Source: a virus
Taxonomy: Duplodnaviria; Heunggongvirae; Uroviricota; Caudoviricetes
Virus record (IMG/VR): IMGVR_UViG_3300042322_000140
Location: 64,228 to 128,227 of that record
Reading direction: 5' to 3' (one strand)
Length of the DNA stretch: 64,000 nucleotides
In this document: piece after piece, positions 12,990 through 63,281 of the stretch
How positions within the stretch are numbered: the first letter of the stretch is position 1
How the letters are laid out: each line of letters opens with the position of its first letter
Made by a program: the position numbers and the translations under genes
Notes under the pieces: model-generated
Told to the model about the DNA's origin: nothing
The model's input: only the letters and a program-made list of their open reading frames with translations
Databases searched by the model: none

Positions 12990-13080
12990 ATATAATAATT
13001 TTTATCTTTGCAAAAAGTTTTTTGATATTTGTTTTTTTTATTCAAATATTATTATTACCTTTGCAAAAAATATTTTTATG
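12990..13080 (+). promoter_or_regulatory. two tandem Bacteroidetes-type -7 boxes (TAtcTTTGcaaaaa, TAccTTTGcaaaaaa) reading rightwards into an ORF-free segment
   Basis: The sequence 'tatctttgcaaaaag' and 'tacctttgcaaaaaatat' match the TAnnTTTG -7 consensus. No ORF lies downstream for about 440 nt. Confidence 0.4.
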
Positions 13081-13081
13081 A

Positions 13082-13365
13082 CGTGTGGCTATCTTAAAAG
13101 ATTCACGTTGCGGTTTAACCACCTAAGCTAAATGGAAGAGGGCATTGCTATTGTAATGAAGACCGCCAGAGCATGGCTAGTTAAGGTTCTAGCCAATTTC
13201 ACAAATGTAGACAGATAAATAAAATACTCTGTCGAATAATCAATAAGGATTTCAGTGATAAATCAAAAAAACTTACAGCAGGCCTTTGGATTCGGTGTTT
13301 TTCCGCTGCTGGTCCTACTTACTTCCTCTTTCTTTATTAAAAGAGGGGGTAAGGGGGTGTTTTTA
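13082..13365 (+). ncRNA. candidate small RNA, or leader/origin-like structured segment
   Basis: ORF-free. Inverted repeats include ACGTGTGG...TTCACGT, CAGCAGG...CCGCTGCTG, and TCCTCTTTC...AAAGAGGGGG followed by GTAAGGGGGTGTTTTT, which is terminator-like. It lies downstream of the two promoters above. Confidence 0.3.
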
Positions 13366-13486
13366 CACATTGTAAAAAACATTTGTTGCGTTTTTACAGT
13401 TTGAACCACGTACATACAAAAACTGTAATTACCGCAACAGTAAATATTTATTAAAATAATAGTAATTATATTTTGTAGTTTAATAT

Positions 13487-13516
13487 TTTATTTGTATCTT
13501 TGCAAAAAATATAAGT
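13487..13516 (+). promoter_or_regulatory. promoter (TAtcTTTGcaaaaaa) for the helicase/recA operon
   Basis: 'ttgtatctttgcaaaaaatataagtATG' sits immediately before the 13517 start. Confidence 0.5.
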
Positions 13517-14896
13517 ATGTATAAATTAAGGGATTACCAAAGTAAAGCTATTACAGAAGGATTAAATATACTAAACAATACTAAAGCATCTAGAGAGTTA
13601 ATTGTACTTCCTACAGGTGCCGGTAAATCTATTGTTATAGCAGAGATTGTAAAGCAGTTAGGTGAGCCTATCGTGATATTACAGCCCTCAAAAGAGTTGC
13701 TTGAACAGAACTATCAGAAATTTATTAATGTTGGCGGTAACGCTTCAATTTACTCAGCTTCCGCTGGGTGTAAAGAATTAAGTAATGTTACTTTTGCAAC
13801 AATAGGCTCGATAAAAAAGGCAGTCAATGAATTAAAAAAGCTTAAAGTGACCAAAATAATTATTGATGAGTCACACATTGGAGTTAAGGGAGGTTCTCAA
13901 CTAAGATTATTTTTAAATAGCCTTGGTATAACTAATGTTTTAGGACTAACAGCAACACCCTTTATACTAGCTAGTACAATGAATGGTGCCGAACTAAAGA
14001 TGCTTACAAAGATAAAGAGTAAACTTTTTACTAATATATCTTACGTTGAGCAAATACATAGTATGTTAGATAATAGGTATTGGACACCTTTAGAGTATAG
14101 AGTTGTAGAACAAGACGACACTTTTTTAAAAATAAACTCTTCTGGATCAGATTACACAGAGGATAGCATGCAGAGTTTTTACGAGAATAATGATTTACAA
14201 TCACAAATAGTAGATAATGTTGAGCATTGTATTAGTGAGGGTTCAAAATCAATACTTGTATTTGTACCAACAATAGAAGAGGCTGATAGACTAGCTTCTA
14301 GAATAACTAATTCTAAGTCTGTAAGCTCTTTGACAAATAAAAAAGAAAGAGACGATATTATCAATGGTTTCAAGAATGGGCAAATAAATGTTGTGATAAA
14401 CGTAGGTATTTTAACTACAGGCTTTGATTACCCGGAATTAGAAACTATTATATTAGGTAGATCAACAATGTCTTTTGCTTTATACTATCAAATGATAGGT
14501 AGAGGTGTAAGAATACACGATAATAAGAATAAAACTGTTGTTATTGACCTTAGTGAGAACTATAATAGATTTGGGAAGGTTGAAGATTTTACTGTTGATT
14601 TTGTAGAGGGTTATGGATGGGGGTTATTCAAAGGAGAGAGCTTAATAAGCAATTATCCAATAGAAGCTAAACACAGACCAACAAAAGCGAATCTAGTAAA
14701 AAAGAAAAATATAGCAGTGCCTGTACTACAAGTAGGAAGCAATAAAATGCCTTTTGGTAAATATAAAGACTTTATGCTGCTTGATATTTTAAAGAAAGAC
14801 AAAGGTTATTTAGTTTGGATGTACGAAAAGTTTACTTTTTACCCTAATCAAAAATGGCTTAAGCTAGAAATAGCCACTTTGTTAAATTTATCATAA
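13517..14896 (+). CDS. SF2 DEAD/DEAH-box DNA helicase with C-terminal MPFGKYKD (DUF3820-like) tail
   Basis: Walker A LPTGAGKS; motif II IIDESH; helicase C-domain motifs (TTGFDYPE, YQMIGRGVR); C-terminal MPFGKYKDFMLLDIL...YLVWM. Confidence 0.75.
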   Translation: MYKLRDYQSKAITEGLNILNNTKASRELIVLPTGAGKSIVIAEIVKQLGEPIVILQPSKELLEQNYQKFINVGGNASIYSASAGCKELSNVTFATIGSIKKAVNELKKLKVTKIIIDESHIGVKGGSQLRLFLNSLGITNVLGLTATPFILASTMNGAELKMLTKIKSKLFTNISYVEQIHSMLDNRYWTPLEYRVVEQDDTFLKINSSGSDYTEDSMQSFYENNDLQSQIVDNVEHCISEGSKSILVFVPTIEEADRLASRITNSKSVSSLTNKKERDDIINGFKNGQINVVINVGILTTGFDYPELETIILGRSTMSFALYYQMIGRGVRIHDNKNKTVVIDLSENYNRFGKVEDFTVDFVEGYGWGLFKGESLISNYPIEAKHRPTKANLVKKKNIAVPVLQVGSNKMPFGKYKDFMLLDILKKDKGYLVWMYEKFTFYPNQKWLKLEIATLLNLS

Positions 14897-14957: not shown

Positions 14958-15941
14958 ATGGCAGAAGAAAAAGACCCTTTATTAGATGTTTTAGCTAGTA
15001 TGGATAAAAGATTCGGAAAAGGTGCGGTTATTGTAGGAGACACTGTTATACAGACAGAAAGACAAAGTACTGGATCATTAGGTGTAGATATAATCACCGG
15101 AGGTGGTTGGGGAAAAGGGAGAATGGTTGAGATTTACGGCCCTGAAAGCTCAGGTAAAACTACACTATGTATCCATACAATGATACAAGCTCAGATAGAT
15201 AGCCCAGATAAAAAAGTAGCTTTTATTGATGCCGAACATGCTTTTGATAGAAATTATGCAGAGCACCTTGGATTAGATATGTCACAGGTAATTATATCAC
15301 AACCAGATAGCGGAGAACAAGCTCTTGAAATAGCAGAGGCTTTGATTGCATCAGGTAAAATATCAGTTTGTGTTATTGACTCTGTTGCCGCATTGACACC
15401 AAGAGCAGAAATTGAAGGAGAAATGGGGGATTCTAAAATGGGGTTACATGCTAGACTAATGTCACAAGCTTGTAGAAAATTGACTGGAGTAGTAAGTAAA
15501 ACAAACACAGTGCTTCTTTGGACAAACCAAATTAGGATGAAAATAGGTGTAATGTTTGGTAGCCCAGAAACAGTTCCTGGTGGAGAAGCTTTGAAATTTT
15601 ATGCATCTACCCGAATTGACATTCGTAAAAGCAAAGGGGATGAAGATAAAGACGGAAATATTATCAACAGCCACGTAAAAGTAAAAACCATTAAGAATAA
15701 ATTAGCACCCCCTTTCCAAGTAACTAAGTTTGATATTGTTTTTGGAGAAGGTATTGACAGATCTAGTGAGATTTTAGCTATTGGCGAAGATATTGGAATA
15801 ATAGAGAAAAAAGGATCTTGGTTTAATTACGGAGAAACTAAGTTAGGCCAAGGAGGAAACAATGTAAAACAGTTACTTTCTGATAACCCTGAGTTATCTG
15901 AGGAAATTGAAAATAAGATTAGAAAATATTTTAATATCTAG
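14958..15941 (+). CDS. recA: RecA recombinase (bacterial-type)
   Basis: Near-canonical RecA N-terminal and P-loop: KRFGKGAV...TGSLGVDI..GGWGKGRMVEIYGPESSGKTTL; length 327 aa. Confidence 0.9.
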   Translation: MAEEKDPLLDVLASMDKRFGKGAVIVGDTVIQTERQSTGSLGVDIITGGGWGKGRMVEIYGPESSGKTTLCIHTMIQAQIDSPDKKVAFIDAEHAFDRNYAEHLGLDMSQVIISQPDSGEQALEIAEALIASGKISVCVIDSVAALTPRAEIEGEMGDSKMGLHARLMSQACRKLTGVVSKTNTVLLWTNQIRMKIGVMFGSPETVPGGEALKFYASTRIDIRKSKGDEDKDGNIINSHVKVKTIKNKLAPPFQVTKFDIVFGEGIDRSSEILAIGEDIGIIEKKGSWFNYGETKLGQGGNNVKQLLSDNPELSEEIENKIRKYFNI

Positions 15942-16646: not shown

Positions 16647-17051
16647 ATGAGTGAATTTATAGACCTTACTGTTATTACAATGAGGCTAAAAAAAGAAGTA
16701 AAAGATAATATTACAAAATCTTTTATGAAAGGTATTGGTGGAGGAAGTCAATCTAAAGACTCCTATGGCAGAGATGCCGATTTTTATAGGGATCTTGGTA
16801 TAGATCCACCAGAAGAATTTGAAGATGGGCCAGAAGCTTCTCAATTTAAAGTTGATGAAGATGATATGGAGAAGTTAGAAAGCCCTGCTAGATTTAGGCT
16901 AGATAGCTTAATATTCTTTGTGGCAGGAGAAAAAGAAGGCTCTACAATTTATTTAGATATAGACTACAGAGCATCTGTAAAAGAAACAGTAAAAGAGATT
17001 GAAGCAAAAATTAATAAGTTAAGTAAAAAAAGTAAAGATGGCGTTAAGTAA
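16647..17051 (+). CDS. hypothetical acidic protein
   Basis: 134-aa ORF. Confidence 0.45.
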   Translation: MSEFIDLTVITMRLKKEVKDNITKSFMKGIGGGSQSKDSYGRDADFYRDLGIDPPEEFEDGPEASQFKVDEDDMEKLESPARFRLDSLIFFVAGEKEGSTIYLDIDYRASVKETVKEIEAKINKLSKKSKDGVK

Positions 17052-17787
17052 AAATTATTTACAGTTAGAGTTTGGATCAGGTCATTTTTTTGACTATTCA
17101 AAAGAAGAAAAAGATGGATATGTAAAGCACGTATCAACAAAAGGTAACACAAGTTACAGAAAGTATTACAAAGACGGAGTAGAAGGAGTATTAGACTCTA
17201 TCTCTATTTATGATGGGAAGTTTGGACAACAGATTTCTATTAGTCTAAAAAAAGAAGACGAGATCTTCTATTTACCAGTTGCTATTTATGACCAAAAGGG
17301 CCAAGTAGACAACACGTATGCTGAGAGTTTAATTAAACTTTTGCCTAAATTGGAAAAAGGACAAAACTTGACAGTTCAAGGCTACAACTTTAAACCAGAA
17401 GACAGCCCTTACTCTAAAATTGGATTTAGCATAAAAGCTAGTGGTGAAAAATTAAAATCAGACATCACTAATAGCTATTACAAAGATGGAGAACTAGTTC
17501 CTGGAGACGTTCCTGCTATTGTGTGGGTAGAAAAACTTGGAAAAAAGAAACCATCAGCTGCCTCTATCGAAGCTAAAGATGCTTATCTTTTAGAGTTGTT
17601 AGAAACAGAAGAAAAAAGACTAACTTGGAAAAAGGATGAAGCTGCCGATACAAATAGTACTGCACAAGCACCTAAACCAGAGCCAGTTAAAGCTGAACCA
17701 AAATCGGTACCGACAGCTACTGCAGAACAAGCATTTGAACCAGTTCCTACATCATTAGAAGAGGACGATGACGATTTACCATTTTAA
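17038..17787 (+). CDS. SSB-like protein with bacterial-SSB-type C-terminal tail (…EEDDDDLPF)
   Basis: 249 aa. Flexible Pro/Ala/Glu-rich linker followed by DDDDLPF at the extreme C-terminus (compare bacterial SSB DDDIPF and T7 gp2.5 acidic-Phe). It lies between recA and the chaperonin genes. The N-terminal fold could not be assigned. Confidence 0.5.
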   Translation: MALSKNYLQLEFGSGHFFDYSKEEKDGYVKHVSTKGNTSYRKYYKDGVEGVLDSISIYDGKFGQQISISLKKEDEIFYLPVAIYDQKGQVDNTYAESLIKLLPKLEKGQNLTVQGYNFKPEDSPYSKIGFSIKASGEKLKSDITNSYYKDGELVPGDVPAIVWVEKLGKKKPSAASIEAKDAYLLELLETEEKRLTWKKDEAADTNSTAQAPKPEPVKAEPKSVPTATAEQAFEPVPTSLEEDDDDLPF

Positions 17788-18964: not shown

Positions 18965-20503
18965 ATGTTAAAAATAGGAAAAGAAGCTAAGGAGTCCCTG
19001 ATTAGGGGTATAAATACAGTTTCAGATGCAGTCAAGACCACAATGGGTGCAGAAGGTAAAACTGTTATTATAGAAAATAAGATGGGCTTTAAACCTCATA
19101 TTACTAAGGACGGAGTAACAGTTGCGGAGAGTATTCACTTAGAAGACGCATATGAAGAGCTTGGAGCCAAGCTTATCAAAGAGGCAGCAAGAAGAACTGT
19201 AGACTTAGTAGGAGATGGTACAACAACAGCCACTGTTATCACACAAGAGTTGATAAACAAGGGTATTGAAAAATTAGATTCTGGAATATCTCACGTAGAA
19301 TTAAGAGAAGGCATGGCCATAGCTCTTGAGGATGTTAAGCTAGCTTTGAAATCTTTAAAAAAAGACGTAGGAGAAAAAGAAGTAAAACAAATAGCTACTA
19401 TATCTGCAAACAATGACGTAATTGTAGGGGGGATTATTGCAGATGTATACAAAAAAATTGGAGTAGACGGAACGGTTGATGTACAAGAGGGGGTAGCAAA
19501 AGATACTACAGTTAACTATATTGAAGGTATGTCTTTAGACAGAGGTTGGGCCTTACCACATTTTATATCAGATTCAAGTACAGCAACAGCTGAAATTAAT
19601 GATACATATATCTTGATTTATGACGGTAAGATCAACGCAGTTAATGATATTGCAGAGCATGTAAGAAAAGCTCAATCAGAAGGTAAAGGTTTACATATAT
19701 TTGCAGAAGATTTAGATGAAGGTGTAATGACAATGCTTGTAAAGAGCAAAATGCAAGGAACATTTAGAGTTACTGTAACGATGAACCCAGACTTTGGTGC
19801 AAATAGAACGAGTATCCTTGAGGATCTCGCTATTTTCACAGGGGCTCAAGTCTTCACCCCCAAATTTTCGACAAAGGTTGTTCTGGGGTATGCAGTAAAA
19901 ACCATCTCTGATAAAAGCAGAACAGTTATTATTACAGATACGGGCAGCCAAGAACTTTTAGATAGAATTGAAGAGTTAAAGACACAGGTAGAAAACACTG
20001 AAGATGTTGTAGATAAAGGCAAGCTAGTAAAAAGATTATCAAATCTTAGAAATGCCGTAGCAATTGTAACAGTTGGTGGTGTAACAGACCTGGAAGTAAA
20101 AGAAAAGAAAGATCGGATTGACGATGCAGTAAGTGCAGTTAAATCTGCGTTAGAGGGAGGTTATGTAGCAGGAGGAGGATCAACATTATTGTTTATTTCC
20201 AAGTATAGAATGAAGAAAAAGTTGAAAGGCGGCAAAAAGGATGGTTACGAGTTGGTAAAAGCAGCTATACAAAAACCATTCGAACAAATTTTAGCAAATG
20301 CAGGCTTAGAAAAAGACAAATACGAGCCAAGACTAAGAGTATATGGAAAAGGCATTAACGTTAAGTCAAGAAAGGTAGAAAATTTACTAGAAAAAGGAGT
20401 TATAGACTCTGCAAAAGTAGTAGAAGTCTCCCTAGAAAATGCAACTTCAGTGGCATCTCTAGTTTTACAAACAGATTGTATAATAACAAGCACAGGACTA
20501 TAA
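18965..20503 (+). CDS. groEL: GroEL-family chaperonin (Cpn60) homologue
   Basis: N-terminus aligns by eye to GroEL: GINTVSDAVKTTMGAEGKTVII...PHITKDGVTVAESIHLEDAYEELGAKLIKEAARRTVDLVGDGTTTATV, plus EGMSLDRGW. 512 aa, with no GGM tail. Confidence 0.85.
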   Translation: MLKIGKEAKESLIRGINTVSDAVKTTMGAEGKTVIIENKMGFKPHITKDGVTVAESIHLEDAYEELGAKLIKEAARRTVDLVGDGTTTATVITQELINKGIEKLDSGISHVELREGMAIALEDVKLALKSLKKDVGEKEVKQIATISANNDVIVGGIIADVYKKIGVDGTVDVQEGVAKDTTVNYIEGMSLDRGWALPHFISDSSTATAEINDTYILIYDGKINAVNDIAEHVRKAQSEGKGLHIFAEDLDEGVMTMLVKSKMQGTFRVTVTMNPDFGANRTSILEDLAIFTGAQVFTPKFSTKVVLGYAVKTISDKSRTVIITDTGSQELLDRIEELKTQVENTEDVVDKGKLVKRLSNLRNAVAIVTVGGVTDLEVKEKKDRIDDAVSAVKSALEGGYVAGGGSTLLFISKYRMKKKLKGGKKDGYELVKAAIQKPFEQILANAGLEKDKYEPRLRVYGKGINVKSRKVENLLEKGVIDSAKVVEVSLENATSVASLVLQTDCIITSTGL

Positions 20504-22848: not shown

Positions 22849-23103
22849 ATGGCAGAAGTAGAGGCAATAAAATTTTCAGCAACATGGTGCGGTCCATGTA
22901 GAGTAGTATCAAAACAATTAGAAGGCCTAGACTTCACAAACATAGATATTGACGAAGACCAAGAGGGGCTAGCAAAAAAATCAAATGTAAGAAGCGTTCC
23001 CACAATTATCTTTATGAAAGATGGAGAAGAAGTAGGAAGACATTCAGGATTAATAACAAGAGAAGAATACATAACCAAACTAGAAACATTTAAAAATCAA
23101 TAA
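22849..23103 (+). CDS. trx: thioredoxin-like protein
   Basis: Canonical WCGPC active site (FSATWCGPCRVV) in an 84-aa protein. Confidence 0.8.
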   Translation: MAEVEAIKFSATWCGPCRVVSKQLEGLDFTNIDIDEDQEGLAKKSNVRSVPTIIFMKDGEEVGRHSGLITREEYITKLETFKNQ

Positions 23104-49880: not shown

Positions 49881-50858
49881 ATGAGCATCTTCACAGAAAG
49901 AAAAAACTACAAGCCGTTTGAGTACAGCGGTATTACAGACCCCTTAATTAATGCAATGTGGGCCGGACACTGGACTCATAATGAGTTCAATTTTTTGAAT
50001 GACATTCAAGATTACAAAACAAAATTAACAGTAGAAGAACAAGGAGTAGTCAAAAGAGCTATACTACTAACTTCACAAGTAGAAGTTGCTGTAAAATCTT
50101 ATTGGTCTAACATTGGGAAGTTACTCCCTAAGCCTGAGATAGCTGACATGGGGGCAGTATTCGGAGGGGTAGAAGTTGTCCACTCAAAAGCATATGCAGA
50201 GATACTATCAAAACTTGGATTGGAAGATCAATTTGAAGATTTGTTCTCAGAGCCGGTTGTTGTTGGGAGAGTGAATTATTTAACAAAGTATATCAACAAG
50301 ATATACAAAAATGACCATAAGAATATTTGCTATTCTTTAGTTTTATTTACATTATTCACAGAATATACTGCTTTATTTTCACAATTCTATACTATTCTAG
50401 GATTTAATAGGTTCAGAGGAGTGCTTAAAGATGTAGCAAATGTAGTGCAATATACTTCGAAAGAGGAAAACTTACATGCAGAAGGTGGTATTGCCTTACT
50501 TAACCAAATTAGAGCAGAGCACCCAGAATTATTTGATGCAGAGTTTGTTGAGAAGATTAGACAAGAAGTACTAGAGGCTTACAAAGCTGAGGCAGATTTG
50601 ATTGACTGGATTCTAGAGGGTTATGAAAATGAGTTTTTATCCCCTAAGATTTTAAAAGGTTATGTACAAATTAGATTAAACGATGCCCTAGAGAAAATTG
50701 GTATGGGAACTTCTTTTGAGATTGATCCTCAGATTAGGGAAGAAACTCTTTGGATGGAAGAAGAAGTTTATGCAAGTGCTTTGACAGACTTCTTTCACAA
50801 AAAACCTATTGATTATAGTAAAAAAATGAAAACGTATAACGAAGAAGATTTATTTTAA
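49881..50858 (+). CDS. nrdB: ribonucleotide reductase small (beta/R2) subunit
   Basis: Ferritin-like diiron ligand motifs EVVHSKAY and EENLHAEGG. Size and context with the alpha subunit. Confidence 0.75.
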   Translation: MSIFTERKNYKPFEYSGITDPLINAMWAGHWTHNEFNFLNDIQDYKTKLTVEEQGVVKRAILLTSQVEVAVKSYWSNIGKLLPKPEIADMGAVFGGVEVVHSKAYAEILSKLGLEDQFEDLFSEPVVVGRVNYLTKYINKIYKNDHKNICYSLVLFTLFTEYTALFSQFYTILGFNRFRGVLKDVANVVQYTSKEENLHAEGGIALLNQIRAEHPELFDAEFVEKIRQEVLEAYKAEADLIDWILEGYENEFLSPKILKGYVQIRLNDALEKIGMGTSFEIDPQIREETLWMEEEVYASALTDFFHKKPIDYSKKMKTYNEEDLF

Positions 50859-50859
50859 G

Positions 50860-52506
50860 ATGGAAGATTTTAATTGGTTAAACAAAGACTCAAGAGCATT
50901 TCTTGAAAAAGACTACTTATTAGAGGGGGTTACCCCTGAAGAACGTATCAGACAAATAGCAGATACAGCAGAAAGTGTACTAGGTATTGAAGGATTTTCA
51001 GATAAATTCTACGGCTACATGGCTAAAGGATTTTATTCATTAGCTACACCGGTTTGGATGAATTTTGGCCTTGATAGAGGGTTACCTATATCTTGTTATG
51101 GAATTGACATTCAAGATGACACAATGGATATTCTGAGAGCAACAGCTGAGATTGGTGCCTTAACTAAAATGGGAGGTGGTACTGCCGGTTACTTCGGTAA
51201 GTTAAGAGGTAGAGGTGCACCTATTCGTAACAATGGAGTTTCAAACGGAGCTGTTAGTTTCTTACTACCTTTCCAAACAACAACAGATGTTATTACACAA
51301 GGTCAAGCAAGAAGAGGTTATTTTGCTGCTTACTTACCTGTTGATCACCCAGATATTGAGGAGTTTTTACAATGTAGGAATGAAGGTAATGTTATTCAAA
51401 ATATTGCTCTAGGAGTTTGTATCTCAGATGAATGGATGGAGTCAGCAGAGGCCGGGGATAAAGATAAAAGAAAAATCTTAGCCAAGATACACCAAAAAAG
51501 AGCAGAGTCTGGGTTTCCTTACATCTTCTTTACCGGTAATGTAAACAAGAATAAGCCTAAAGTGTACAAAGATAAAGAGATGGATATTAACCACTCTCAG
51601 ATGTGTACAGAAATCTTAGAATATACAGATGAGCATAAATCATTTGTTTGTTGTTTATCTTCCTTGAACCTTTTACATTGGGATGAGATGGTTCAAACAG
51701 ATGCAGTTGAAACTTTGGCTTACTTCTTAGATGCAGTTTATTCTGAGTTTATACAAAAGGCAGATGGTATTCCATTTATGGAGAAAGCTTTGTTGTTCGC
51801 AAAAGAACACAGAAGTATCGGTATTGGAGTTCTTGGATGGCACAGTTTCTTACAATCTAAACTTATTCCTTTTGAGGGCTTAGAATCTAAGATGTTGAAT
51901 GCCGAGATTTTTAGAACTATCAACGATAAAAGTTTAATTGCAAGTATGCAGTTAGCAACTATGTTTGGGGAGCCGGAAATGCTGAAAGGTTACGGACAAA
52001 GATTTACAACTAGACTAGCAATTGCCCCTACAACAAGTTCGTCTTTTATCCTTGGACAAGTTAGTCCAAGTATTGAGCCATTACAGTCTAATTACTTTAT
52101 TAAAGATCTAGCTAAAGGTAAGTTTGTTTATAGAAACCCTTACTTAAAGAAGTTATTGAAAGATAAAGAGCAGGATACTCCGGAAGTATGGAACAGCATC
52201 TTATTAAAAGGTGGTTCAGTACAACATTTAGATATTCTTGACGAAAAAGAAAAATTAGTATTCAAAACATTTGGTGAGATAAGCCAATTAGAAATAGTAC
52301 AACAAGCTGCCCAAAGACAGAGATTTATTGACCAAGGGCAGTCTTTAAACCTAATGATACACCCTGATACTTCCTTGAAAGAAGTCAATGCGTTGTTCTT
52401 TGAGTCTTGGAAGTTAGGTATAAAAACACTTTATTATCAAAGAAGTGTGAATATGGCCCAAGAGGTTAGCCGTAATCTTATGGATTGCTCTAGTTGTGAG
52501 GGGTAA
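50860..52506 (+). CDS. nrdA: ribonucleotide reductase large (alpha/R1) subunit, class I, no ATP-cone
   Basis: Active-site NHSQMCTEI (compare SNLCTEI). CCLSSLNL cysteine. C-terminal redox pair CSSCEG. Confidence 0.75.
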   Translation: MEDFNWLNKDSRAFLEKDYLLEGVTPEERIRQIADTAESVLGIEGFSDKFYGYMAKGFYSLATPVWMNFGLDRGLPISCYGIDIQDDTMDILRATAEIGALTKMGGGTAGYFGKLRGRGAPIRNNGVSNGAVSFLLPFQTTTDVITQGQARRGYFAAYLPVDHPDIEEFLQCRNEGNVIQNIALGVCISDEWMESAEAGDKDKRKILAKIHQKRAESGFPYIFFTGNVNKNKPKVYKDKEMDINHSQMCTEILEYTDEHKSFVCCLSSLNLLHWDEMVQTDAVETLAYFLDAVYSEFIQKADGIPFMEKALLFAKEHRSIGIGVLGWHSFLQSKLIPFEGLESKMLNAEIFRTINDKSLIASMQLATMFGEPEMLKGYGQRFTTRLAIAPTTSSSFILGQVSPSIEPLQSNYFIKDLAKGKFVYRNPYLKKLLKDKEQDTPEVWNSILLKGGSVQHLDILDEKEKLVFKTFGEISQLEIVQQAAQRQRFIDQGQSLNLMIHPDTSLKEVNALFFESWKLGIKTLYYQRSVNMAQEVSRNLMDCSSCEG

Positions 52507-56483: not shown

Positions 56484-56729
56484 ATGAGAGGTACAATCAG
56501 AAAAGACCAAGACGGTTGGTCAGTAGTATACTTCGTAACAGCTGAGGATTGTGATGCAGTAGCTAGAGTAGAGATGAAGCTACATAAGGAAGATCATGAG
56601 CATGTAAAACATGGAGATTTAGTAGACTTTGAAGCAGTAAAAGTTGGTAAAAAACTTGTAGCTAAGCTAGAAAGAGTGACTACTCACAAAAGAGAAATAA
56701 ACGATCATTTAAAACAAGTAGTACTATGA
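56484..56729 (+). CDS. hypothetical protein
   Basis: 81 aa. Confidence 0.4.
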   Translation: MRGTIRKDQDGWSVVYFVTAEDCDAVARVEMKLHKEDHEHVKHGDLVDFEAVKVGKKLVAKLERVTTHKREINDHLKQVVL

Positions 56730-57424
56730 TTATAGGTTTGTCAGGCCGTATGGGCAGCGGTAAAGATACCGTTGGTAAAATTATACAATATCTTTTATGT
56801 AAGAATGTGGGGGATATTAGTCTAGAAGATGTGGTTTCGTGTAATGACCATGATTGGTGGTTAGATGAACAATCTAAATTTGAAATCAAGAAGTTTGCTG
56901 GTAAATTAAAAGCTGTTGGTAGCTTACTTACAGGGATACCTACAGAAAAGTTTGAAGACCAAGAGTTTAAAAAGACAGACTTGCCAAATGAGTGGGTTTA
57001 TATAGAAAATGGGTATGCTGCTAGAAATATGACAGTTCGTGATTTCTTACAGAAACTTGGTACAGAGGCAATGCGTAACGGCTTACATACAAATGTGTGG
57101 GTCAACGCTTTGTTTGCAGATTATAAAGAAGAGCTCGACCCCTATCATTTTAAATCTCATATAAACGAGTCTACATTAAAATATCCAAATTGGATTTTGA
57201 CAGACATGAGGTTTCCAAACGAACTAGAATCTGTTGTAGAAAGAAATGGTATTACTATTAGAGTAACAAGACCGGTTGAAAAAAGCAAAACAACTGCTAG
57301 ATTACACCCCTCGGAAACATCTCTTGATAAAGCTGAGTTTGATTATGAGATTGTAAACGATGGCACTATCAAAGAGTTAGCAGAAAAGGTGCAAATAATT
57401 TTAATAAAAGAAGGCATACTATGA
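56726..57424 (+). CDS. deoxynucleoside monophosphate kinase (T4 gp1-like P-loop kinase)
   Basis: N-terminal MIIGLSGRMGSGKDT resembles T4 dNMP kinase MKLIFLSGVKRSGKDT. Confidence 0.6.
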   Translation: MIIGLSGRMGSGKDTVGKIIQYLLCKNVGDISLEDVVSCNDHDWWLDEQSKFEIKKFAGKLKAVGSLLTGIPTEKFEDQEFKKTDLPNEWVYIENGYAARNMTVRDFLQKLGTEAMRNGLHTNVWVNALFADYKEELDPYHFKSHINESTLKYPNWILTDMRFPNELESVVERNGITIRVTRPVEKSKTTARLHPSETSLDKAEFDYEIVNDGTIKELAEKVQIILIKEGIL

Positions 57425-57795
57425 ACCCAAGATTTGAACCAAAACACATATTAGCTATAGATTTCGATCTAACTATATGTATGAGTGATTACCCAAAACT
57501 TGGCCCAATGAGAAGAGGTGCCAAAGAAGCAATAACAAAGCTTTATAATGATGGGTTTGGTATTGTGATTAACACATGTAGAGATGGTCACCCTTTGTCT
57601 GATGCAATGCATTGGTTAAAAGATAACGACATTCCTTACCATTATGTTAATTGTAATTTTCCACACTTAATCGAGCACTACAAAGCTGATTGTCGTAAGA
57701 TTTCAGCAGATATGTACATAGATGATAAGGGGGTAGAGGACCTACCGTCTTGGACTAAAATTTATAAAATAATAACAAACAAATTTAAAATATGA
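57421..57795 (+). CDS. HAD-superfamily small hydrolase (nucleotidase-like)
   Basis: DxDxT motif ILAIDFDLTI. Confidence 0.5.
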   Translation: MNPRFEPKHILAIDFDLTICMSDYPKLGPMRRGAKEAITKLYNDGFGIVINTCRDGHPLSDAMHWLKDNDIPYHYVNCNFPHLIEHYKADCRKISADMYIDDKGVEDLPSWTKIYKIITNKFKI

Positions 57796-58094
57796 AAAGT
57801 TACGGTGAATTAGAGGCTCTTGTTATAGCATGGGCGGCACAAAAAGGCATTTTAGAAAAAGCTACGCCAATGGCTCAAGCACTAAAAACATTAGAAGAAT
57901 GTACAGAATTATGTACAGCAATCAACAATAATGACCGTCCTGAGATCATTGATGCTTTGGGTGACATTCTAGTAACAATCATTATCCAAGCAGAGATGCA
58001 AGGCATGAGTCTTAGAAACTGTTTAGAGAGTGCATACAATGTAATTTCTCAGCGTACCGGTAGAATGGAGAATGGCCAATTTGTAAAAGATTAA
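57792..58094 (+). CDS. MazG-like nucleotide pyrophosphohydrolase
   Basis: EECTEL...ALGDILV all-alpha NTP-PPase signature. Confidence 0.6.
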   Translation: MKSYGELEALVIAWAAQKGILEKATPMAQALKTLEECTELCTAINNNDRPEIIDALGDILVTIIIQAEMQGMSLRNCLESAYNVISQRTGRMENGQFVKD

Positions 58095-58264: not shown

Positions 58265-58852
58265 ATGTATATAAACTTTGAAATCGCAAAGAAGAGAGGA
58301 TTGTCTCCCACAGATGTTGTAAATCTACAGCTTATCTCACAAAACAAATTAGAGAGTTTGTGGGAGATTATTACAGAAACTATAACTCTAGGTACTTTAG
58401 ATAGATACCAAACTTTAGAGTACATTACCTTAGTAAAAGCAAAGAACAAAAGTGATACTATTCAGAATCGTGTTAGGCTTACACCTAAAGGCAATGAGTT
58501 ACTAGAAGAGCTGCAAGTCCCTATGATAGATGAAGACGACTTAAAGTTATATGACTGGTTAGAGTCTGTATATAAGGCAGAGAATAAAGAAATAGGTAAT
58601 AGAAAAAAGACAAAGTTGTTTATAGCTCTATTTAGAGTTAACTCTGGTATTGATAGAAATAAACTAGCTTACTTATGTAAAGTGTTTATGAATGATGCTA
58701 GTCAGTTTGAGTGGTCTAAAGTTTTAGAATACCTTTTCTTTAAGCCGGCCAATCTTTATAGTACCAAGTTCGATATTGAGCAATCAAGATTGTATAGATA
58801 CTACTTGAAGTATCAAGATATGTTTGATAATAAATTTAAAACCTTAGAATAA
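58265..58852 (+). CDS. hypothetical protein (helicase-associated by position)
   Basis: 195 aa, immediately upstream of the DnaB-like gene. Confidence 0.45.
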   Translation: MYINFEIAKKRGLSPTDVVNLQLISQNKLESLWEIITETITLGTLDRYQTLEYITLVKAKNKSDTIQNRVRLTPKGNELLEELQVPMIDEDDLKLYDWLESVYKAENKEIGNRKKTKLFIALFRVNSGIDRNKLAYLCKVFMNDASQFEWSKVLEYLFFKPANLYSTKFDIEQSRLYRYYLKYQDMFDNKFKTLE

Positions 58853-58853
58853 A

Positions 58854-59999
58854 ATGCAAATACAAAAATTTAGAGACCTTACTAAAAAAGCTTTCCAAGA
58901 GATTAAGCAGTACCAAATTGGTAACAAAGGTATTATAAAAACAGGACTTCCTTATTTTGATGATGTCTTTCCTGTAGTTAATGGCTCAGTAATTGTATTT
59001 TCAGCAGGTTCCGGTATTGGTAAAAGTTACACATTGGCCAAAATGGTTGATAATATCTTAAGTAAAGAGTTAAACCCTACAGCTGATAACTTTGTAGTAC
59101 TTAATATATCTTTAGAGATGAGAGTTCTTAGTTTAGTCCTTCGTGGTATGGCTAAGAATATAAAGTCTAAATCTAAAAAAGAAATCTTATTACAAGAGTT
59201 TACAGAAGAAGAGAAGTTACAAGCTAAATCTTACTTTGAATCTTTACAAGATGATAGAGTTAGTATCTCACAAGTTCCGACTACACCAAATAAGTTTTAT
59301 GAAGGTTGTAAAGAGTTCTTAGAGATGAACAAAGATAAAGATTCAGTTATTATTACTGTCGATCACTTAGCATTGATTTCTGGAGATTCTGGAGAAGGTA
59401 GAAATACTATTATTGAAAAGTTTATAGAAAGGGTTAATGATTTAAAGATGGAGTACGAAAATGTTATTTTTATACTGTTGTCTCAAACAAACTCAGAGAT
59501 GATTAAAAGAGCTAAAGATAAAGATATTATGGCTCAACCTCAACCCTCAGATTTGTACTACTCTCAGTTTACTTTCCAAGTTGCAGACTTTGTAGCCGTA
59601 ATGACTAACCCAACCAGGCTTGGTATCAAAGAATACAGCAAGATTGATCCGGATAGGTATCCAAATTTAGAGAAGTTCTTCTTGGAAGAGGATCTAAAAG
59701 GTAGAGTTTCTTTAGAGCCATTTGGTGTAAATTATGTGCACTTACTAAAATGTAGAGAGGCCGATGGTTTATACTTAGATATTTATGCTGAAGAATTACC
59801 TATTCCTGATGTGGAGAATATCAGAAAGAGTAGAAAGAAAGAATCTATTTCAGTAAGTAATCTTAGTGCACCGGTCTTTGGTAAAACAGAAACTATAGCT
59901 GTTGATGCACCCCCACCACCTCCACCATTAGGTAAAATAGAGGATGCATTTGACCCTATAGTTTTAGCAGATGAAGAAGACGATGATGCACCATTTTAA
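58854..59999 (+). CDS. DnaB-family replicative helicase ATPase domain protein with SSB-type C-terminal tail (…EEDDDAPF)
   Basis: H1 SAGSGIGKSYT. H1a NISLEM. H2 VIITVDHLALIS. H3 ILLSQTNSEM. Pro-rich linker, then DEEDDDAPF at the C-terminus. Confidence 0.7.
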   Translation: MQIQKFRDLTKKAFQEIKQYQIGNKGIIKTGLPYFDDVFPVVNGSVIVFSAGSGIGKSYTLAKMVDNILSKELNPTADNFVVLNISLEMRVLSLVLRGMAKNIKSKSKKEILLQEFTEEEKLQAKSYFESLQDDRVSISQVPTTPNKFYEGCKEFLEMNKDKDSVIITVDHLALISGDSGEGRNTIIEKFIERVNDLKMEYENVIFILLSQTNSEMIKRAKDKDIMAQPQPSDLYYSQFTFQVADFVAVMTNPTRLGIKEYSKIDPDRYPNLEKFFLEEDLKGRVSLEPFGVNYVHLLKCREADGLYLDIYAEELPIPDVENIRKSRKKESISVSNLSAPVFGKTETIAVDAPPPPPPLGKIEDAFDPIVLADEEDDDAPF

Positions 60000-60119: not shown

Positions 60120-60701
60120 ATGATTAAAAAAATGTTATTAGGATTGACTATTTTAGTTAGTGTAGGGATGTCAAAATCACCACAAAATATGACTATAGTT
60201 ATACAACCTTTCGAAGGTATGCCTAAAGAAGAAGTAGAGTATGTAACAAGGGAAGTTAAAAAGATATACCCCTATGTAACAGTTATGAAAGAAACCCCCT
60301 TACAGAAAAAGTTTATGAACTCTACCAAAACTAGGTATAGAGCAGACCTTTTGATAAAGGATCTTAACTTAAAGGCTAAAGAGGGTACTTGTGTTATAGG
60401 GTTAACAAACAAAGATATAAGCACCACTAAAGGTAAATACGCAGATTGGGGTGTTATGGGACTAGGTTATTGCCCAGGAAATGCTTGTGTAATATCGAAT
60501 TACCGAGTCAAGGGCACAGATAGACTAGATAAACTGTATAAACTATCAATACACGAATTAGGGCATACACAAGGACTACCGCACTGCCCATCAAAAGGTT
60601 GCATAATGCAAGATGCTAAGGGTAAAGATAATTTTAGTAAAGAATACGGATTTTGTAAAAAGTGCACTAAACATTTAAGAAATAGAAATTGGAAAATATG
60701 A
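60120..60701 (+). CDS. secreted archaemetzincin-like zinc metalloprotease
   Basis: Signal peptide MIKKMLLGLTILVSVGMS. HELGHTQGLPHC-PSKG-C-I-M fits the archaemetzincin HExxHxxGxxHCx4CxM signature. A second CKKC pair follows. Confidence 0.6.
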   Translation: MIKKMLLGLTILVSVGMSKSPQNMTIVIQPFEGMPKEEVEYVTREVKKIYPYVTVMKETPLQKKFMNSTKTRYRADLLIKDLNLKAKEGTCVIGLTNKDISTTKGKYADWGVMGLGYCPGNACVISNYRVKGTDRLDKLYKLSIHELGHTQGLPHCPSKGCIMQDAKGKDNFSKEYGFCKKCTKHLRNRNWKI

Positions 60702-60970: not shown

Positions 60971-61338
60971 TGCAGTACAAAGATATAAACGAAGAAGTAG
61001 AGAACTGGAAAAACTCTTGGCAACAAAACCACTACATGGCTAAACTGACAGAAAAGCAAAGGGAAAAAGATTTCAGAGAAGGTTACATGAGAGGTTTTGA
61101 AATAGCTACAAAAATATCGGAAAAGAAAAACCTAGATATGATATTGAAAAGCATAGACACAGGTTTGCTAAATGAAATGGTTGCCTACGCAGAGAAAGAT
61201 AAAGCAGAAGTAACACGAGTAGAGGTTATACAACACTCAGAGCCACACAATGGAAGAGCTTATACTAACTATAATGCTAAAGATGTTGAGGTACAATACC
61301 AAGATGGTGGTAAAACATTAAAAATATTTTGTAAGTAA
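60967..61338 (+). CDS. hypothetical protein
   Basis: 123 aa. Confidence 0.45.
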   Translation: MMQYKDINEEVENWKNSWQQNHYMAKLTEKQREKDFREGYMRGFEIATKISEKKNLDMILKSIDTGLLNEMVAYAEKDKAEVTRVEVIQHSEPHNGRAYTNYNAKDVEVQYQDGGKTLKIFCK

Positions 61339-63281
61339 TGAATTTAGATAAGATATACGTAATAGATGCAGAGTCAGATGGACTTGTAGATCAGTCTACA
61401 AAGATCTGGTGTATGGGTATAAGTTGGATGGACAAGTCTGGAAAGTGGAAAGTAAAATCTACTATTGACTATGATGATATGCGTAACATCTTGACTAACC
61501 CTGACAATACATTAGTTTGTCATAACATAGTTAGATTTGACGTACCTTTATATGAAAAAATACTTGGGATAAAGGTTACAGCAAGTGTTATTGACTCTCT
61601 AGGTTTATCTTGGTACTTATACCCGGAAAGGGGCCAAAGAGACCATGGACTAGCTTCTTGGGGGGAAGAGTTTGGAGTACCAAAACCAAAGATTGATAAC
61701 TGGGAAAATCTTTCTATAGAAGAGTACAGAAATAGGGTAGAAGAGGATGTTAAGATTAACACAAACCTATGGGTAAAACAATACAAGTATTTAAAAAAGA
61801 TATATGATGACCCTAGAGATATAGTAAGAATCATAAGCTACTTGAACTTTAAACTAACTTGTCTAAAGATTCAAGAAGAAGATAAAATTCTGATTGATGT
61901 AGAACAATGTCAAAAAAACTTAGATTACTTACAAGGTATCGAGAATGAAAAGAAAGTATTACTAGAGGCTGCTATGCCAAAGTTACCAATAATAAAAACT
62001 TTGACTAAGCCAAAAGTTATGTATAAAAAAGACGGTAGTTTGAGTGTAGCTGGTAATAGATGGTTAGAGTTACTAGAGCATAATGGAGTAAGAGAAGACT
62101 TTGAAGGAGAATTAAACGTTACTACTGGTTACGATGAGCCAAATGCCGGAAGTCCTACCCAAGTAAAAGACTGGTTGATGAAACTTGGTTGGAAGCCTTT
62201 ACTGTTTGAAGAAGGTCGTAATGGTAAGGTGCCGCAAGTTCGTGATAAAGAAAAGATGTTGTGTAAGAGTGTACTGGCTCTTAGAGATAAGGAGCCGGCT
62301 ATCGAACACTTAGATGGTTTATCTGTAGTTACTCACAGAGCAGGTTATTTGAAAGGTTTCTTAGAACGTGCTGATGAGAATGGTTATGCTGTGGCTTATG
62401 CACATGGGTTTACAAAAACTTTAAGATTAAAACATGCAAAGCCATTTGTGAACTTACCTAAACCGACAGCCCCATATGGAGAGTACATCAGAAGTGTTAT
62501 AATAGCACCTAAAGGCAGTATCTTGATTGGTTCCGATGTTAGTAGTTTGGAGGATAAAATGAAACAAATCTCTATCTACCCTTATGATCCTGGGTATGTT
62601 GAAGATATGAACAGACCGGGTTGGGATGCTCACCTAGATCTAGGTGTTAGAAGTGGTATTATATCACAAGAAGAGTCTGACTTTTTTAGATGGTATAAAA
62701 CTAAAGATAAAAAGAGAGAAGATTTACCTGAAATATTTAAAGTCTATAAAGACGAAGAATTATCTGAGCAATTTGAAAAGGTGAGTAAGAAAAGAGCAAC
62801 TTCTAAAACTGGTAACTATGCTTTGACATATGGTTGTGGTGTACCTAAATTAAAAGAGTCAACAGGTCTTACAACAAAAGATGCTAAGACTTTGTTTGAT
62901 GGATATTGGGGCCGTAATTGGTCTGTTAAGAAGTATGCTGAGGATAGAGCAGTTAGGTTAGTAGATGGTAAGTCTTGGATTTGGAACCCTATAACCAACT
63001 TTTACTACTTTTTGGCATCTGAGAAAGATAGATTTTCTGCTTGTAATCAGTCTGCCGGTGTTAGGGTGTTTGATGGTTATGTTTATGAGATGATTAAACG
63101 TGGTGTTAGACCTATTTTTCAGGCTCATGATGAGGTTTTATTAAGAGTTAAAAATGAAGATGTGGATTCTACAATAGCGGCTCTTAAATCTTCTATAAAT
63201 AAGGTAAATAAACAATACAATTTCCCAGTTGAAATTGAGATTGATATTCAAACAGGAGAGTCTTATGCAGCAGTGCATTAA
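61338..63281 (+). CDS. polA: family A DNA polymerase (T7-like; 3'-5' exo plus polymerase, no 5'-3' exo)
   Basis: Exo I IDAESDGL. Motif A DVSSLEDK. Motif B RATSKTGNYALTYGCG. Motif C QAHDEVLL. Confidence 0.8.
   Translation: MNLDKIYVIDAESDGLVDQSTKIWCMGISWMDKSGKWKVKSTIDYDDMRNILTNPDNTLVCHNIVRFDVPLYEKILGIKVTASVIDSLGLSWYLYPERGQRDHGLASWGEEFGVPKPKIDNWENLSIEEYRNRVEEDVKINTNLWVKQYKYLKKIYDDPRDIVRIISYLNFKLTCLKIQEEDKILIDVEQCQKNLDYLQGIENEKKVLLEAAMPKLPIIKTLTKPKVMYKKDGSLSVAGNRWLELLEHNGVREDFEGELNVTTGYDEPNAGSPTQVKDWLMKLGWKPLLFEEGRNGKVPQVRDKEKMLCKSVLALRDKEPAIEHLDGLSVVTHRAGYLKGFLERADENGYAVAYAHGFTKTLRLKHAKPFVNLPKPTAPYGEYIRSVIIAPKGSILIGSDVSSLEDKMKQISIYPYDPGYVEDMNRPGWDAHLDLGVRSGIISQEESDFFRWYKTKDKKREDLPEIFKVYKDEELSEQFEKVSKKRATSKTGNYALTYGCGVPKLKESTGLTTKDAKTLFDGYWGRNWSVKKYAEDRAVRLVDGKSWIWNPITNFYYFLASEKDRFSACNQSAGVRVFDGYVYEMIKRGVRPIFQAHDEVLLRVKNEDVDSTIAALKSSINKVNKQYNFPVEIEIDIQTGESYAAVH

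Follow-up and report, generated by a model that had tools for sequence, protein, structure and literature searches.

The window analyzed here, a 64-kb stretch of DNA (IMG/VR record IMGVR_UViG_3300042322_000140, positions 64,228 to 128,227) from a large phage that has not been cultured and is a relative of phi17:2, a phage of Cellulophaga, encodes an SSB-like protein (SSB, single-stranded DNA-binding protein) and a DnaB-like helicase whose C-terminal tails appear, on sequence comparison, to be a conserved, shared docking-type motif. The two tails are likely to bind a common partner. By analogy with phage T7, the leading single candidate for that partner would be the phage's own family-A DNA polymerase (PolA), to which we give somewhat less than an even chance. 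The two proteins and the elements of their tails are as follows.

17038-17787, plus strand: SSB-like protein, 249 amino acids (aa), with a beta-rich globular domain (residues 1-198), a disordered Pro/Ala/Thr/Glu-rich linker, and an SSB-type acidic tip.
17725-17742, plus strand: aromatic motif E-Q-A-F-E-P, residues 230-235 of the SSB-like tail, upstream of the tip.
17758-17784, plus strand: SSB-like acidic tip EEDDDDLPF, residues 241-249, at the C terminus.
58854-59999, plus strand: helicase, 381 aa, with a RecA-like DnaB_C core and a C-terminal extension of ~70 residues.
59871-59879, plus strand: helicase extension motif 1, P-V-F, residues 340-342 (P340 and F342 at least 90% conserved, alignment A2).
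59943-59954, plus strand: helicase extension motif 2, D-A-F-D, residues 364-367 (F366 at least 90% conserved), common to the SSB-like tail.
59970-59996, plus strand: helicase acidic tip DEEDDDAPF, residues 373-381 (F381 invariant, P380 at least 90% conserved).

The ORF at 17038-17787 ends ...PTATAEQAFEPVPTSLEEDDDDLPF (in short form, EQAFEPVPTSLEEDDDDLPF), and the ORF at 58854-59999 ends ...LGKIEDAFDPIVLADEEDDDAPF (in short form, EDAFDPIVLADEEDDDAPF). A sequence-only reading of this DNA had remarked on an acidic, Phe-terminated tip common to the two proteins and on the linker ahead of it, and both observations held up; all four ORFs that it singled out (those starting at 17038, 58854, 61338, and 22849) were recovered with the same boundaries. 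Only two of the 309 window ORFs (both strands, minimum length 40 aa), the SSB-like protein and the helicase, end in the pattern [DE]3+.?PF. When each ORF was shuffled 2,000 times, a mean of 0.0005 such ends was obtained and two were never reached. This control and the conservation of the tips in homologues rule out chance or low sequence complexity as the source of the paired tips. The linker ahead of both tips is rich in Pro, Ala, Thr, and Glu, and residues 199-249 of the SSB-like protein are predicted to be disordered. The resemblance also extends beyond what was first reported: approximately 20 residues of the two tails align, with E-Q-A-F-E-P of the SSB-like protein opposite D-A-F-D of the helicase, so that the shared motif has two parts, (E/D/Q)-A-F-(E/D/G)-P and, after an acidic run, a C-terminal x-P-F. 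A third acidic/aromatic end in the window, NEEDLF on NrdB (49881-50858), is an ordinary R2 tail.

The product of 17038-17787, a putative ssDNA-binding protein, is likely the SSB of this phage. The assignment is based on its fold, its three-part architecture, a conserved basic-aromatic motif (SYRKYY), the neighboring recombinase gene, and the lack of any further SSB among the window ORFs scanned against the profile libraries. The ORF found no relative in Pfam, PHROGs, NCBIfam, or the sequences of the PDB, and no meaningful Pfam match was found for 108 diverse members of its family. In the AlphaFold2 (AF2) model, residues 1-198 have a predicted local distance difference test score (pLDDT) of ~90, and residues 199-249 fall below 50. 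The predicted elements (strands 48-60, 63-72, and 75-82, helix 94-104, and strands 110-118 and 127-134) follow the canonical order of an oligonucleotide/oligosaccharide-binding (OB) fold. The globular domain has a net charge of -1 and is not basic overall. A Foldseek search of viral models found the same fold in gp094 of phi17:2 (E = 5.6e-11). That gene product, annotated as hypothetical, is encoded at the equivalent place in its genome and has the terminus ...AEEDDDLPF; it is only ~19% identical to the window protein and recognizable only by structure.

Like bacterial SSBs, the protein is predicted to combine a globular core of the ssDNA-binding type with a Pro/Ala-rich disordered linker and an acidic tip. 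Unlike them, it has a domain of ~200 residues with extra N- and C-terminal elements and without detectable sequence relation to PF00436, and its tip recurs on a helicase. Its sole SSB match in the PDB (E = 0.82) runs through the tail, and by sequence it does not classify as a PF00436 SSB. It also differs from gp3 of TG1 and phiC31, a phage SSB, to which hhalign gave a probability of 0.1-0.2%; it has no zinc site, because it contains no cysteines. The docking peptide of TG1 gp3, a recombination directionality factor that is a phage SSB, is N-terminal and hydrophobic (PMC11795197). A nearer parallel is Bas52_0087, a phage SSB-like protein with an FDDDIPF tip that has been proposed to interface with host factors (bioRxiv 10.64898/2026.04.29.721553). 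Compared by description, both are noncanonical phage OB-fold proteins (predicted as such here) with a disordered C terminus and a host-type SSB tip; Bas52_0087 differs in its two-OB architecture, and no tail-matched helicase was reported for it.

The tip is the defining feature of a sizeable family. We collected 360 close homologues, and an exhaustive profile search yielded 363 clusters at 50% identity. PF is the ending of 130/135 full-length representatives, each standing for one such cluster, and is nearly always part of D-(L/I/M/V)-P-F; the frequency of the top residue is 0.98 across L-P-F versus 0.29 in the preceding linker. Remote members keep an acidic Phe end as well (MT836733, ...GDDSDLPF; MW202577, ...GGKDDDDF). 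The sequence PTAT-x-(E/Q)-AF-(E/G) recurs in many close homologues, and because the aromatic AF motif is missing in some family members, we regard it as an accessory element. In MT836733, a human-gut phage contig, the SSB-like gene (13596-14344, minus strand) is split into two overlapping ORFs, the downstream one ending in the tip given above, owing to either a sequencing frameshift or a real one.

The identification of 58854-59999 as a DnaB-like helicase was borne out by matches to Pfam DnaB_C (PF03796; 55.9 bits against a cutoff of 27, E = 5.5e-15, residues 28-253) and phrog_37407 (7e-79). Neither a DnaB N-terminal domain nor a primase domain was found in scans of Pfam and NCBIfam profiles, and the NCBIfam phage_DnaB model aligned over model positions 151-370 only, with a score far below its cutoff. 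It shares 39.5% identity with a protein annotated as a DnaB-like helicase in Cellulophaga phages phi17:2 and phi4:1 (gp198) and is more remotely related to the helicases of crAss-like phages. Its extension consists of three conserved aromatic islands in otherwise variable sequence, with top-residue frequencies of 0.79 for PxF and 0.73 for xPF compared to 0.08-0.38 for the flanking linkers. The central (D/E/N)AF(G/D/E) island recurs in helicases down to 33% identity, and the extension and xPF tip are kept over the same range, phi17:2 included (gp198 tip, EEEDDKPF); the residue ahead of Pro-Phe varies (A/S/N/D/K/T/P). The extension as a whole is lacking from DnaB_C helicases whose identity is 29% or lower, which stop directly behind the core, and the helicase tail is therefore a clade-specific addition. 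An SSB-type tip on a replicative helicase was not described outside T7 in the literature that we searched. Directly upstream of the helicase lies one further gene.

58265-58852, plus strand: 195-aa ORF, ending one base ahead of the helicase start codon (phrog_32643, function unknown, 8.7e-25).

This ORF has no Pfam or NCBIfam match, and its position is conserved in phi17:2 (gp197). It could be a helicase loader or initiator.

Seven genomes, namely, five IMG/VR contigs, phi17:2, and the window, allowed both tails to be read. Strongly acidic SSB-like and helicase tails occur together in five of them, and the remaining two have a weak tail on each protein (EKHDDLPFA with QDDNKSPF in one; DDYQDLPFA with KEDSNSPF in the second). 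The net acidities of the two tails are correlated across these related genomes (Spearman rho 0.89, p 0.008). Such co-variation is what a shared reader would produce, and it is suggestive only, because the sample is small and the genomes are related. On contig ..042882_000890, the helicase is 36% identical to that of the window and the acidic tails still match. A revised motif scan for more SSB/helicase pairs within one genome added no new shared contigs, the broad alignments were too divergent to seed a locus scan for such pairs, and tblastn with phi17:2 gp094 retrieved its own relatives only.

The tip of the SSB-like protein is that of the SSBs of its putative hosts. A scan of bacterial genomes for ...DDDLPF followed by a stop returned many Bacteroidota. 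The matching ORFs of Flagellimonas, Maribacter, and a Bacteroidales metagenome-assembled genome (MAG) are canonical SSBs (PF00436, E ~1e-31 to 1e-33), and the same SSB sequence is present at the N terminus of those from Allomuricauda, Sinomicrobium, and two Flavobacteriaceae MAGs. Flavobacteriaceae is the family that contains the host of the closest cultured phage relatives. In the phage, the shared hexapeptide sits on a domain without detectable homology to the Flavobacteriaceae SSBs. The earlier claim that in bacteria only SSB carries such a tip (DDDIPF) does not strictly hold: DUF3127 proteins (PF11325, ~125 aa) of Chryseobacterium, Pedobacter, and Crocinitomicaceae also have a Pro/Ala-rich linker followed by ...DDDLPF. 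Since DUF3127 proteins share it, the SSB tip is not exclusive to SSB in Bacteroidota, and they may be a second cellular family using the same docking code.

The arrangement that we propose for the phage fork is as follows. The SSB-like protein would coat exposed template, and the hexameric DnaB_C helicase would encircle the lagging strand. Both would present the same docking peptide, a (D/E)AF motif, an acidic run, and a C-terminal x-Pro-Phe, at the end of a flexible linker acting as a tether. One ligand would imply one site on a common partner, with a basic rim and a pocket for Pro-Phe-COO-, and the partner would be kept concentrated at the fork and handed between helicase and SSB. The likeliest partner would be the T7-gp5-like polymerase of the phage, probably engaged through a conserved basic insertion in its thumb; this choice follows the analogy with T7 gp4 and gp2.5 on gp5/thioredoxin. 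The tails of gp2.5 and gp4 use two basic patches on gp5/thioredoxin (PMC12339929; bioRxiv 10.64898/2026.05.20.726333), and the precedent that the sequence-only reading had invoked is thus sound. The candidate reader and its insertion are located as follows.

61338-63281, plus strand: family-A DNA polymerase with a 3'-5' exonuclease domain, 647 aa.
61974-62153, plus strand: polymerase thumb insertion, residues 213-272, with the basic loop KLPIIKTLTKPKVMYKK, placed by MAFFT and BLASTP alignment with T7 gp5.

The expected family-A polymerase is indeed encoded here (Pfam DNA_pol_A, 1.6e-15; phrog_17, 6e-83). No solved relative was found by sequence search, and a fold search was needed. With the AF2 model (pLDDT 91), the top 26 Foldseek matches in the PDB are T7 gp5 (best, 6p7e_B; E = 1.4e-26, template-modeling score ~0.7), ahead of Klenow (E = 2.3e-20), and the highest-ranked structure, 6P7E, contains gp5 together with the tail peptide of gp4. 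Sequence identity to gp5 is only 17-20%. Two helices of the thumb, 188-212 and 273-282, are separated by an insertion of 60 residues that corresponds in position to the thioredoxin-binding domain (TBD) of T7, and the lysine-rich start of the insertion is alike in the two polymerases (T7, LPKYPRIKTPKVGGIFKKPKN; window, MPKLPIIKTLTKPKVMYKKDGS). Lys or Arg is at least 77% conserved across the polymerase family at positions 215, 222, 224, 226, 230, 231, and 241. A PolA gene is found no more than 9 kb downstream of the tailed helicase in 17/21 loci with full flanks. The system thus resembles T7 in that an SSB and a hexameric helicase end in an acidic, Phe-terminal tail with an upstream aromatic residue (the T7 tails compared were SWDEDDEESEEADEDGDF and TDWSNDTDF) and in that the family-A polymerase has gp5 as its closest solved fold, with a lysine-rich insertion at the TBD site.

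A number of observations weigh against the polymerase as the reader or against a T7-like arrangement as a whole. The front basic patch of T7 gp5 (K587, K589, R590, and R591) falls in a deletion of the window polymerase (VDGK--SWIWNP); in a few members of the polymerase family, basic residues are inserted there. By prediction, the thumb insertion folds into a beta-loop-alpha-beta mini-domain (pLDDT 81-87), unlike the flexible loop of T7, and it is duplicated in some homologues. No correlation was seen (n = 14) between helicase tail acidity and polymerase charge, whether taken over the thumb loop (rho 0.08, p 0.79), the whole insertion (rho -0.29), or the front-patch site (rho 0.34); the loop could bind duplex DNA instead. 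The tailed helicase is paired with two PolA lineages that are 20-25% identical to each other and is accompanied by two unrelated lineages of archaeo-eukaryotic primase (AEP). The complete genome MW202577 encodes an SSB-like family member with an acidic Phe tail and no polymerase that could be found, and Salinivibrio phage CW02, which has a polymerase of the same PolA subfamily, has a primase-helicase without a tail and no thioredoxin. Compared to T7, the SSB-like protein is not a relative of gp2.5 (hhalign probability, 0.7% and 0.25%), and the helicase has no primase, the latter being a separate AEP enzyme, unlike the fused gp4. The tip is ...D-x-P-F, as in bacterial SSBs, rather than ...D-F, and its DDDLPF hexapeptide is identical to that of the Flavobacteriaceae SSB. 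The thioredoxin is phage encoded here and absent from the whole genome of phi17:2, which has both tails.

The window system is therefore not strictly a T7-type replisome, as three T7 hallmarks (a gp2.5-family SSB, the gp4 fusion, and the front basic patch) were looked for and are absent. What stands of the T7-like, tail-coordinated replisome inferred earlier are the shared and conserved tails, the gp5-like fold, and the basic insertion; the missing front patch, the lack of co-variation between tail and loop, the two PolA lineages, phi17:2 without thioredoxin, the untailed CW02, the absence of gp2.5 and of the gp4 fusion, and the host-SSB tip all count against it.

Several observations concern the polymerase relatives themselves. 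In a set of homologues comprising P0314, P0330, P0283, and P0324, some duplicate the thumb module LSxAGxKW..L..DYDGE, and others are 975-1026 aa long, with a LAGLIDADG domain (PF14528) suggestive of an inserted intein or homing endonuclease. The notion that the tail always accompanies this PolA subfamily is ruled out by CW02 and by the two PolA lineages. Two genes past the CW02 polymerase, the hypothetical protein gp25 (13037-13849) ends ...EPDFDDDLPW and is probably the unannotated SSB of that phage, with Trp replacing the terminal Phe. At four IMG/VR loci (L178, L183, L166, and L192), helicases 36-38% identical to that of the window adjoin polymerases that are 80-85% identical, and the replication modules thus appear, from these identities, to be shuffled among the IMG/VR relatives.

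Three other readers of the tails have to be weighed, none of which, together with the polymerase, is exclusive of the rest. In T7, other acidic tails can take the place of the gp2.5 tail. Because the tip equals the Flavobacteriaceae SSB tip, host SSB partners should recognize both phage proteins and would be just as natural a reader. The tails might copy the host tip and thereby draw in, or sequester, proteins that bind the host SSB (among them nucleases, helicases, primase, polymerase subunits, and RNase H) at the phage fork, with the helicase as a second platform or decoy. The canonical SSBs of Flavobacteriaceae and Bacteroidales end in the same hexapeptide, and the closest cultured relatives infect Cellulophaga, a member of Flavobacteriaceae. 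D-L-P-F is near universal in the SSB-like family whatever the replication module, even in the genome in which no polymerase was found. The bacterial SSB C-terminal tip (SSB-Ct) is a hub for at least 17 partners (PMC10018359 and PMC5872125), and Bas52_0087, introduced above, offers a phage precedent. The need for host factors is less obvious, however, in a lineage with a polymerase, helicase, AEP primase, recombinase, and exonucleases among its own gene products; the residue before Pro-Phe is variable in the helicase, whereas the SSB keeps Leu or Ile; and the host of the window is itself inferred. We consider recruitment of the host SSB interactome a serious rival, though less probable than the polymerase as the principal explanation, and it would be compatible with a polymerase reader.

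A reader among the other phage replication proteins is less probable still, in either of two forms. In one, the tails would act as DNA mimics that fold into the ssDNA groove of the SSB-like protein, with the helicase tail binding the same groove, and would thereby regulate ssDNA binding and help the helicase load onto or displace SSB-coated DNA. Simulations and discussion for T7 have the gp2.5 tail competing with ssDNA for its own groove (PMC12339929), and deletion of the gp4 tail cuts unwinding to ~45% (bioRxiv 10.64898/2026.05.20.726333). The invariance of the tail in the SSB-like family irrespective of the other replication proteins is what a reader on the same protein predicts, and the co-varying acidity of the two tails would fit as well. 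Against charge mimicry, the strictly conserved Pro-Phe-COOH suggests a specific pocket, the net charge of the globular domain is not positive (-1), and the AF2 model shows an undocked tail (pLDDT below 50); this form seems improbable. In the other, which we rate as similarly improbable, the reader would be a different phage protein: mainly the AEP primase, or else the 195-aa ORF, the RecA/UvsX-like recombinase, or the superfamily 2 (SF2) helicase. With the primase, coupling through a peptide would stand in for the DnaB N-terminal domain that is missing here as well as for the fusion found in T7. Consistent with this form, the helicase has neither the primase-binding DnaB N-terminal domain nor a fused primase, an AEP primase lies near the polymerase in the closest relative and accompanies most tailed helicases, the helicase extension has an additional conserved PxF that is absent from the SSB-like tail, and the 195-aa ORF is conserved beside the helicase. 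The two unrelated AEP lineages that accompany the tailed helicase argue the other way, as does the occurrence of the SSB-like tail in phages with other primase types.

The thioredoxin that the sequence-only reading had placed in this replisome is encoded between the SSB-like gene and the genes for ribonucleotide reductase (RNR).

22849-23103, plus strand: phage thioredoxin, 84 aa, WCGPC (PF00085, 1.1e-12; TIGR01068, 2.3e-15, below cutoff).
49881-50858, plus strand: NrdB (RNR beta), ending NEEDLF (phrog_86, 4.6e-64).
50860-52506, plus strand: NrdA (RNR alpha), ending DCSSCEG (TIGR02510, 752 bits against a cutoff of 602).

The PF00085 match and the DCSSCEG terminus confirmed the WCGPC thioredoxin and the CSSCEG tail of NrdA on which that reading relied. 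In class I RNRs, the C-terminal cysteine pair is re-reduced by thioredoxin-type proteins. Reduction of the NrdA CSSCEG tail, which had been offered as the alternative, is the more conventional role and probably the one that the thioredoxin plays; it is compatible with a role at the polymerase, but service as a T7-like polymerase subunit seems quite unlikely. The presence of thioredoxin was scored by direct search in 10-kb flanks, a single-protein scan being too narrow. Twelve related contigs have it 4-5 kb downstream of the SSB-like gene, and a 13th (L124) has it upstream; none was found within 10 kb of the SSB-like gene in more divergent loci. Thioredoxin was present in 5/5 cases with a window-type PolA and absent in 2/2 without, counts that are tiny, come from related genomes, and are partly confined to 10-kb windows. 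A rule that thioredoxin always accompanies the tails is ruled out by phi17:2. A MazG-like pyrophosphohydrolase (57792-58094) and a deoxynucleoside monophosphate (dNMP) kinase (56726-57424) are encoded just upstream of the helicase module, and together with NrdAB and thioredoxin they form a nucleotide-supply set.

No close DNA relative of the region was found by megablast against annotated phages. Phages phi17:2 and phi4:1 (Lightbulbvirus, 145 kb) have the same gene order through PolA and the AEP primase, and homologues are found on uncultured viral contigs of up to ~150 kb. The order shared with phi17:2 begins with a block of SF2 helicase, RecA/UvsX-like recombinase, a small "NAD synthetase"-like ORF, a 134-aa ORF, and the SSB-like gene (gp089 RecA to gp094 SSB-fold protein in phi17:2) and continues later with NrdB, NrdA, and then the 195-aa ORF, the helicase, and PolA. 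The polymerase of phi17:2 differs in belonging to the other PolA lineage (794 aa). The first two genes of the block are located as follows.

13517-14896, plus strand: SF2 DNA helicase (phrog_16, 4.4e-75; ResIII and Helicase_C).
14958-15941, plus strand: UvsX/RecA-like recombinase (phrog_97, 1.3e-91).

The SF2 helicase has an ExoX-like_C match (PF20600, 28.9 bits, cutoff 26.5) at residues 413-438, and its counterpart in phi17:2, gp081, ends ...GFIVPF. In the closest relative (91-94% identical), the region just beyond the window end encodes a BT4734-like AEP primase (PF08800, 3.5e-12), 2.2 kb past the polymerase, and a Mre11-like exonuclease. Three features suggest a host in Bacteroidota, probably Flavobacteriia: the low G+C content of the window (33.5%), a primase of Bacteroidota type, and the relatives that infect Cellulophaga. 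A phage GroEL is encoded at 18965-20503 (phrog_5725, 1.8e-126), and in the syntenic block of phi17:2 a GroES is annotated close by. An archaemetzincin-like metallopeptidase (Peptidase_M54, 5e-12) with a hydrophobic N terminus, encoded at 60120-60701 between the helicase and polymerase genes, is an odd neighbor for replication genes.

For a sizeable family of phage proteins labeled "hypothetical," the analysis yields a likely function and a motif that defines them. It is possible, if doubtful, that this SSB family (363 clusters) gained the exact tip of its hosts, independently or by capture, and that the helicase of one clade of large Bacteroidota phages copied it and plugs into the readers of the SSB tail. 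If so, the copied tip would couple the helicase in trans to a separate primase and polymerase, the peptide replacing both the DnaB N-terminal domain and the primase fusion of T7; alternatively, it would trap or neutralize the host enzymes that partner SSB at the phage fork. The textbook example, T7, is also the only system described in the literature searched whose SSB and replicative helicase keep the polymerase at the fork by the same kind of C-terminal tail. The window and its relatives are a second, independent natural example of tail sharing, and its parts, an SSB of unclassified fold, a minimal DnaB_C helicase, and an AEP primase encoded separately, are nonhomologous. Because phi17:2 and phi4:1 can be cultivated, tail sharing is experimentally tractable in this group. 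Since the tip is the bacterial SSB-Ct itself, two questions are directly testable, namely, whether tail sharing is a general solution for clamp-less phage replisomes and whether the SSB-Ct code can give a helicase access to partners from the host or the phage.

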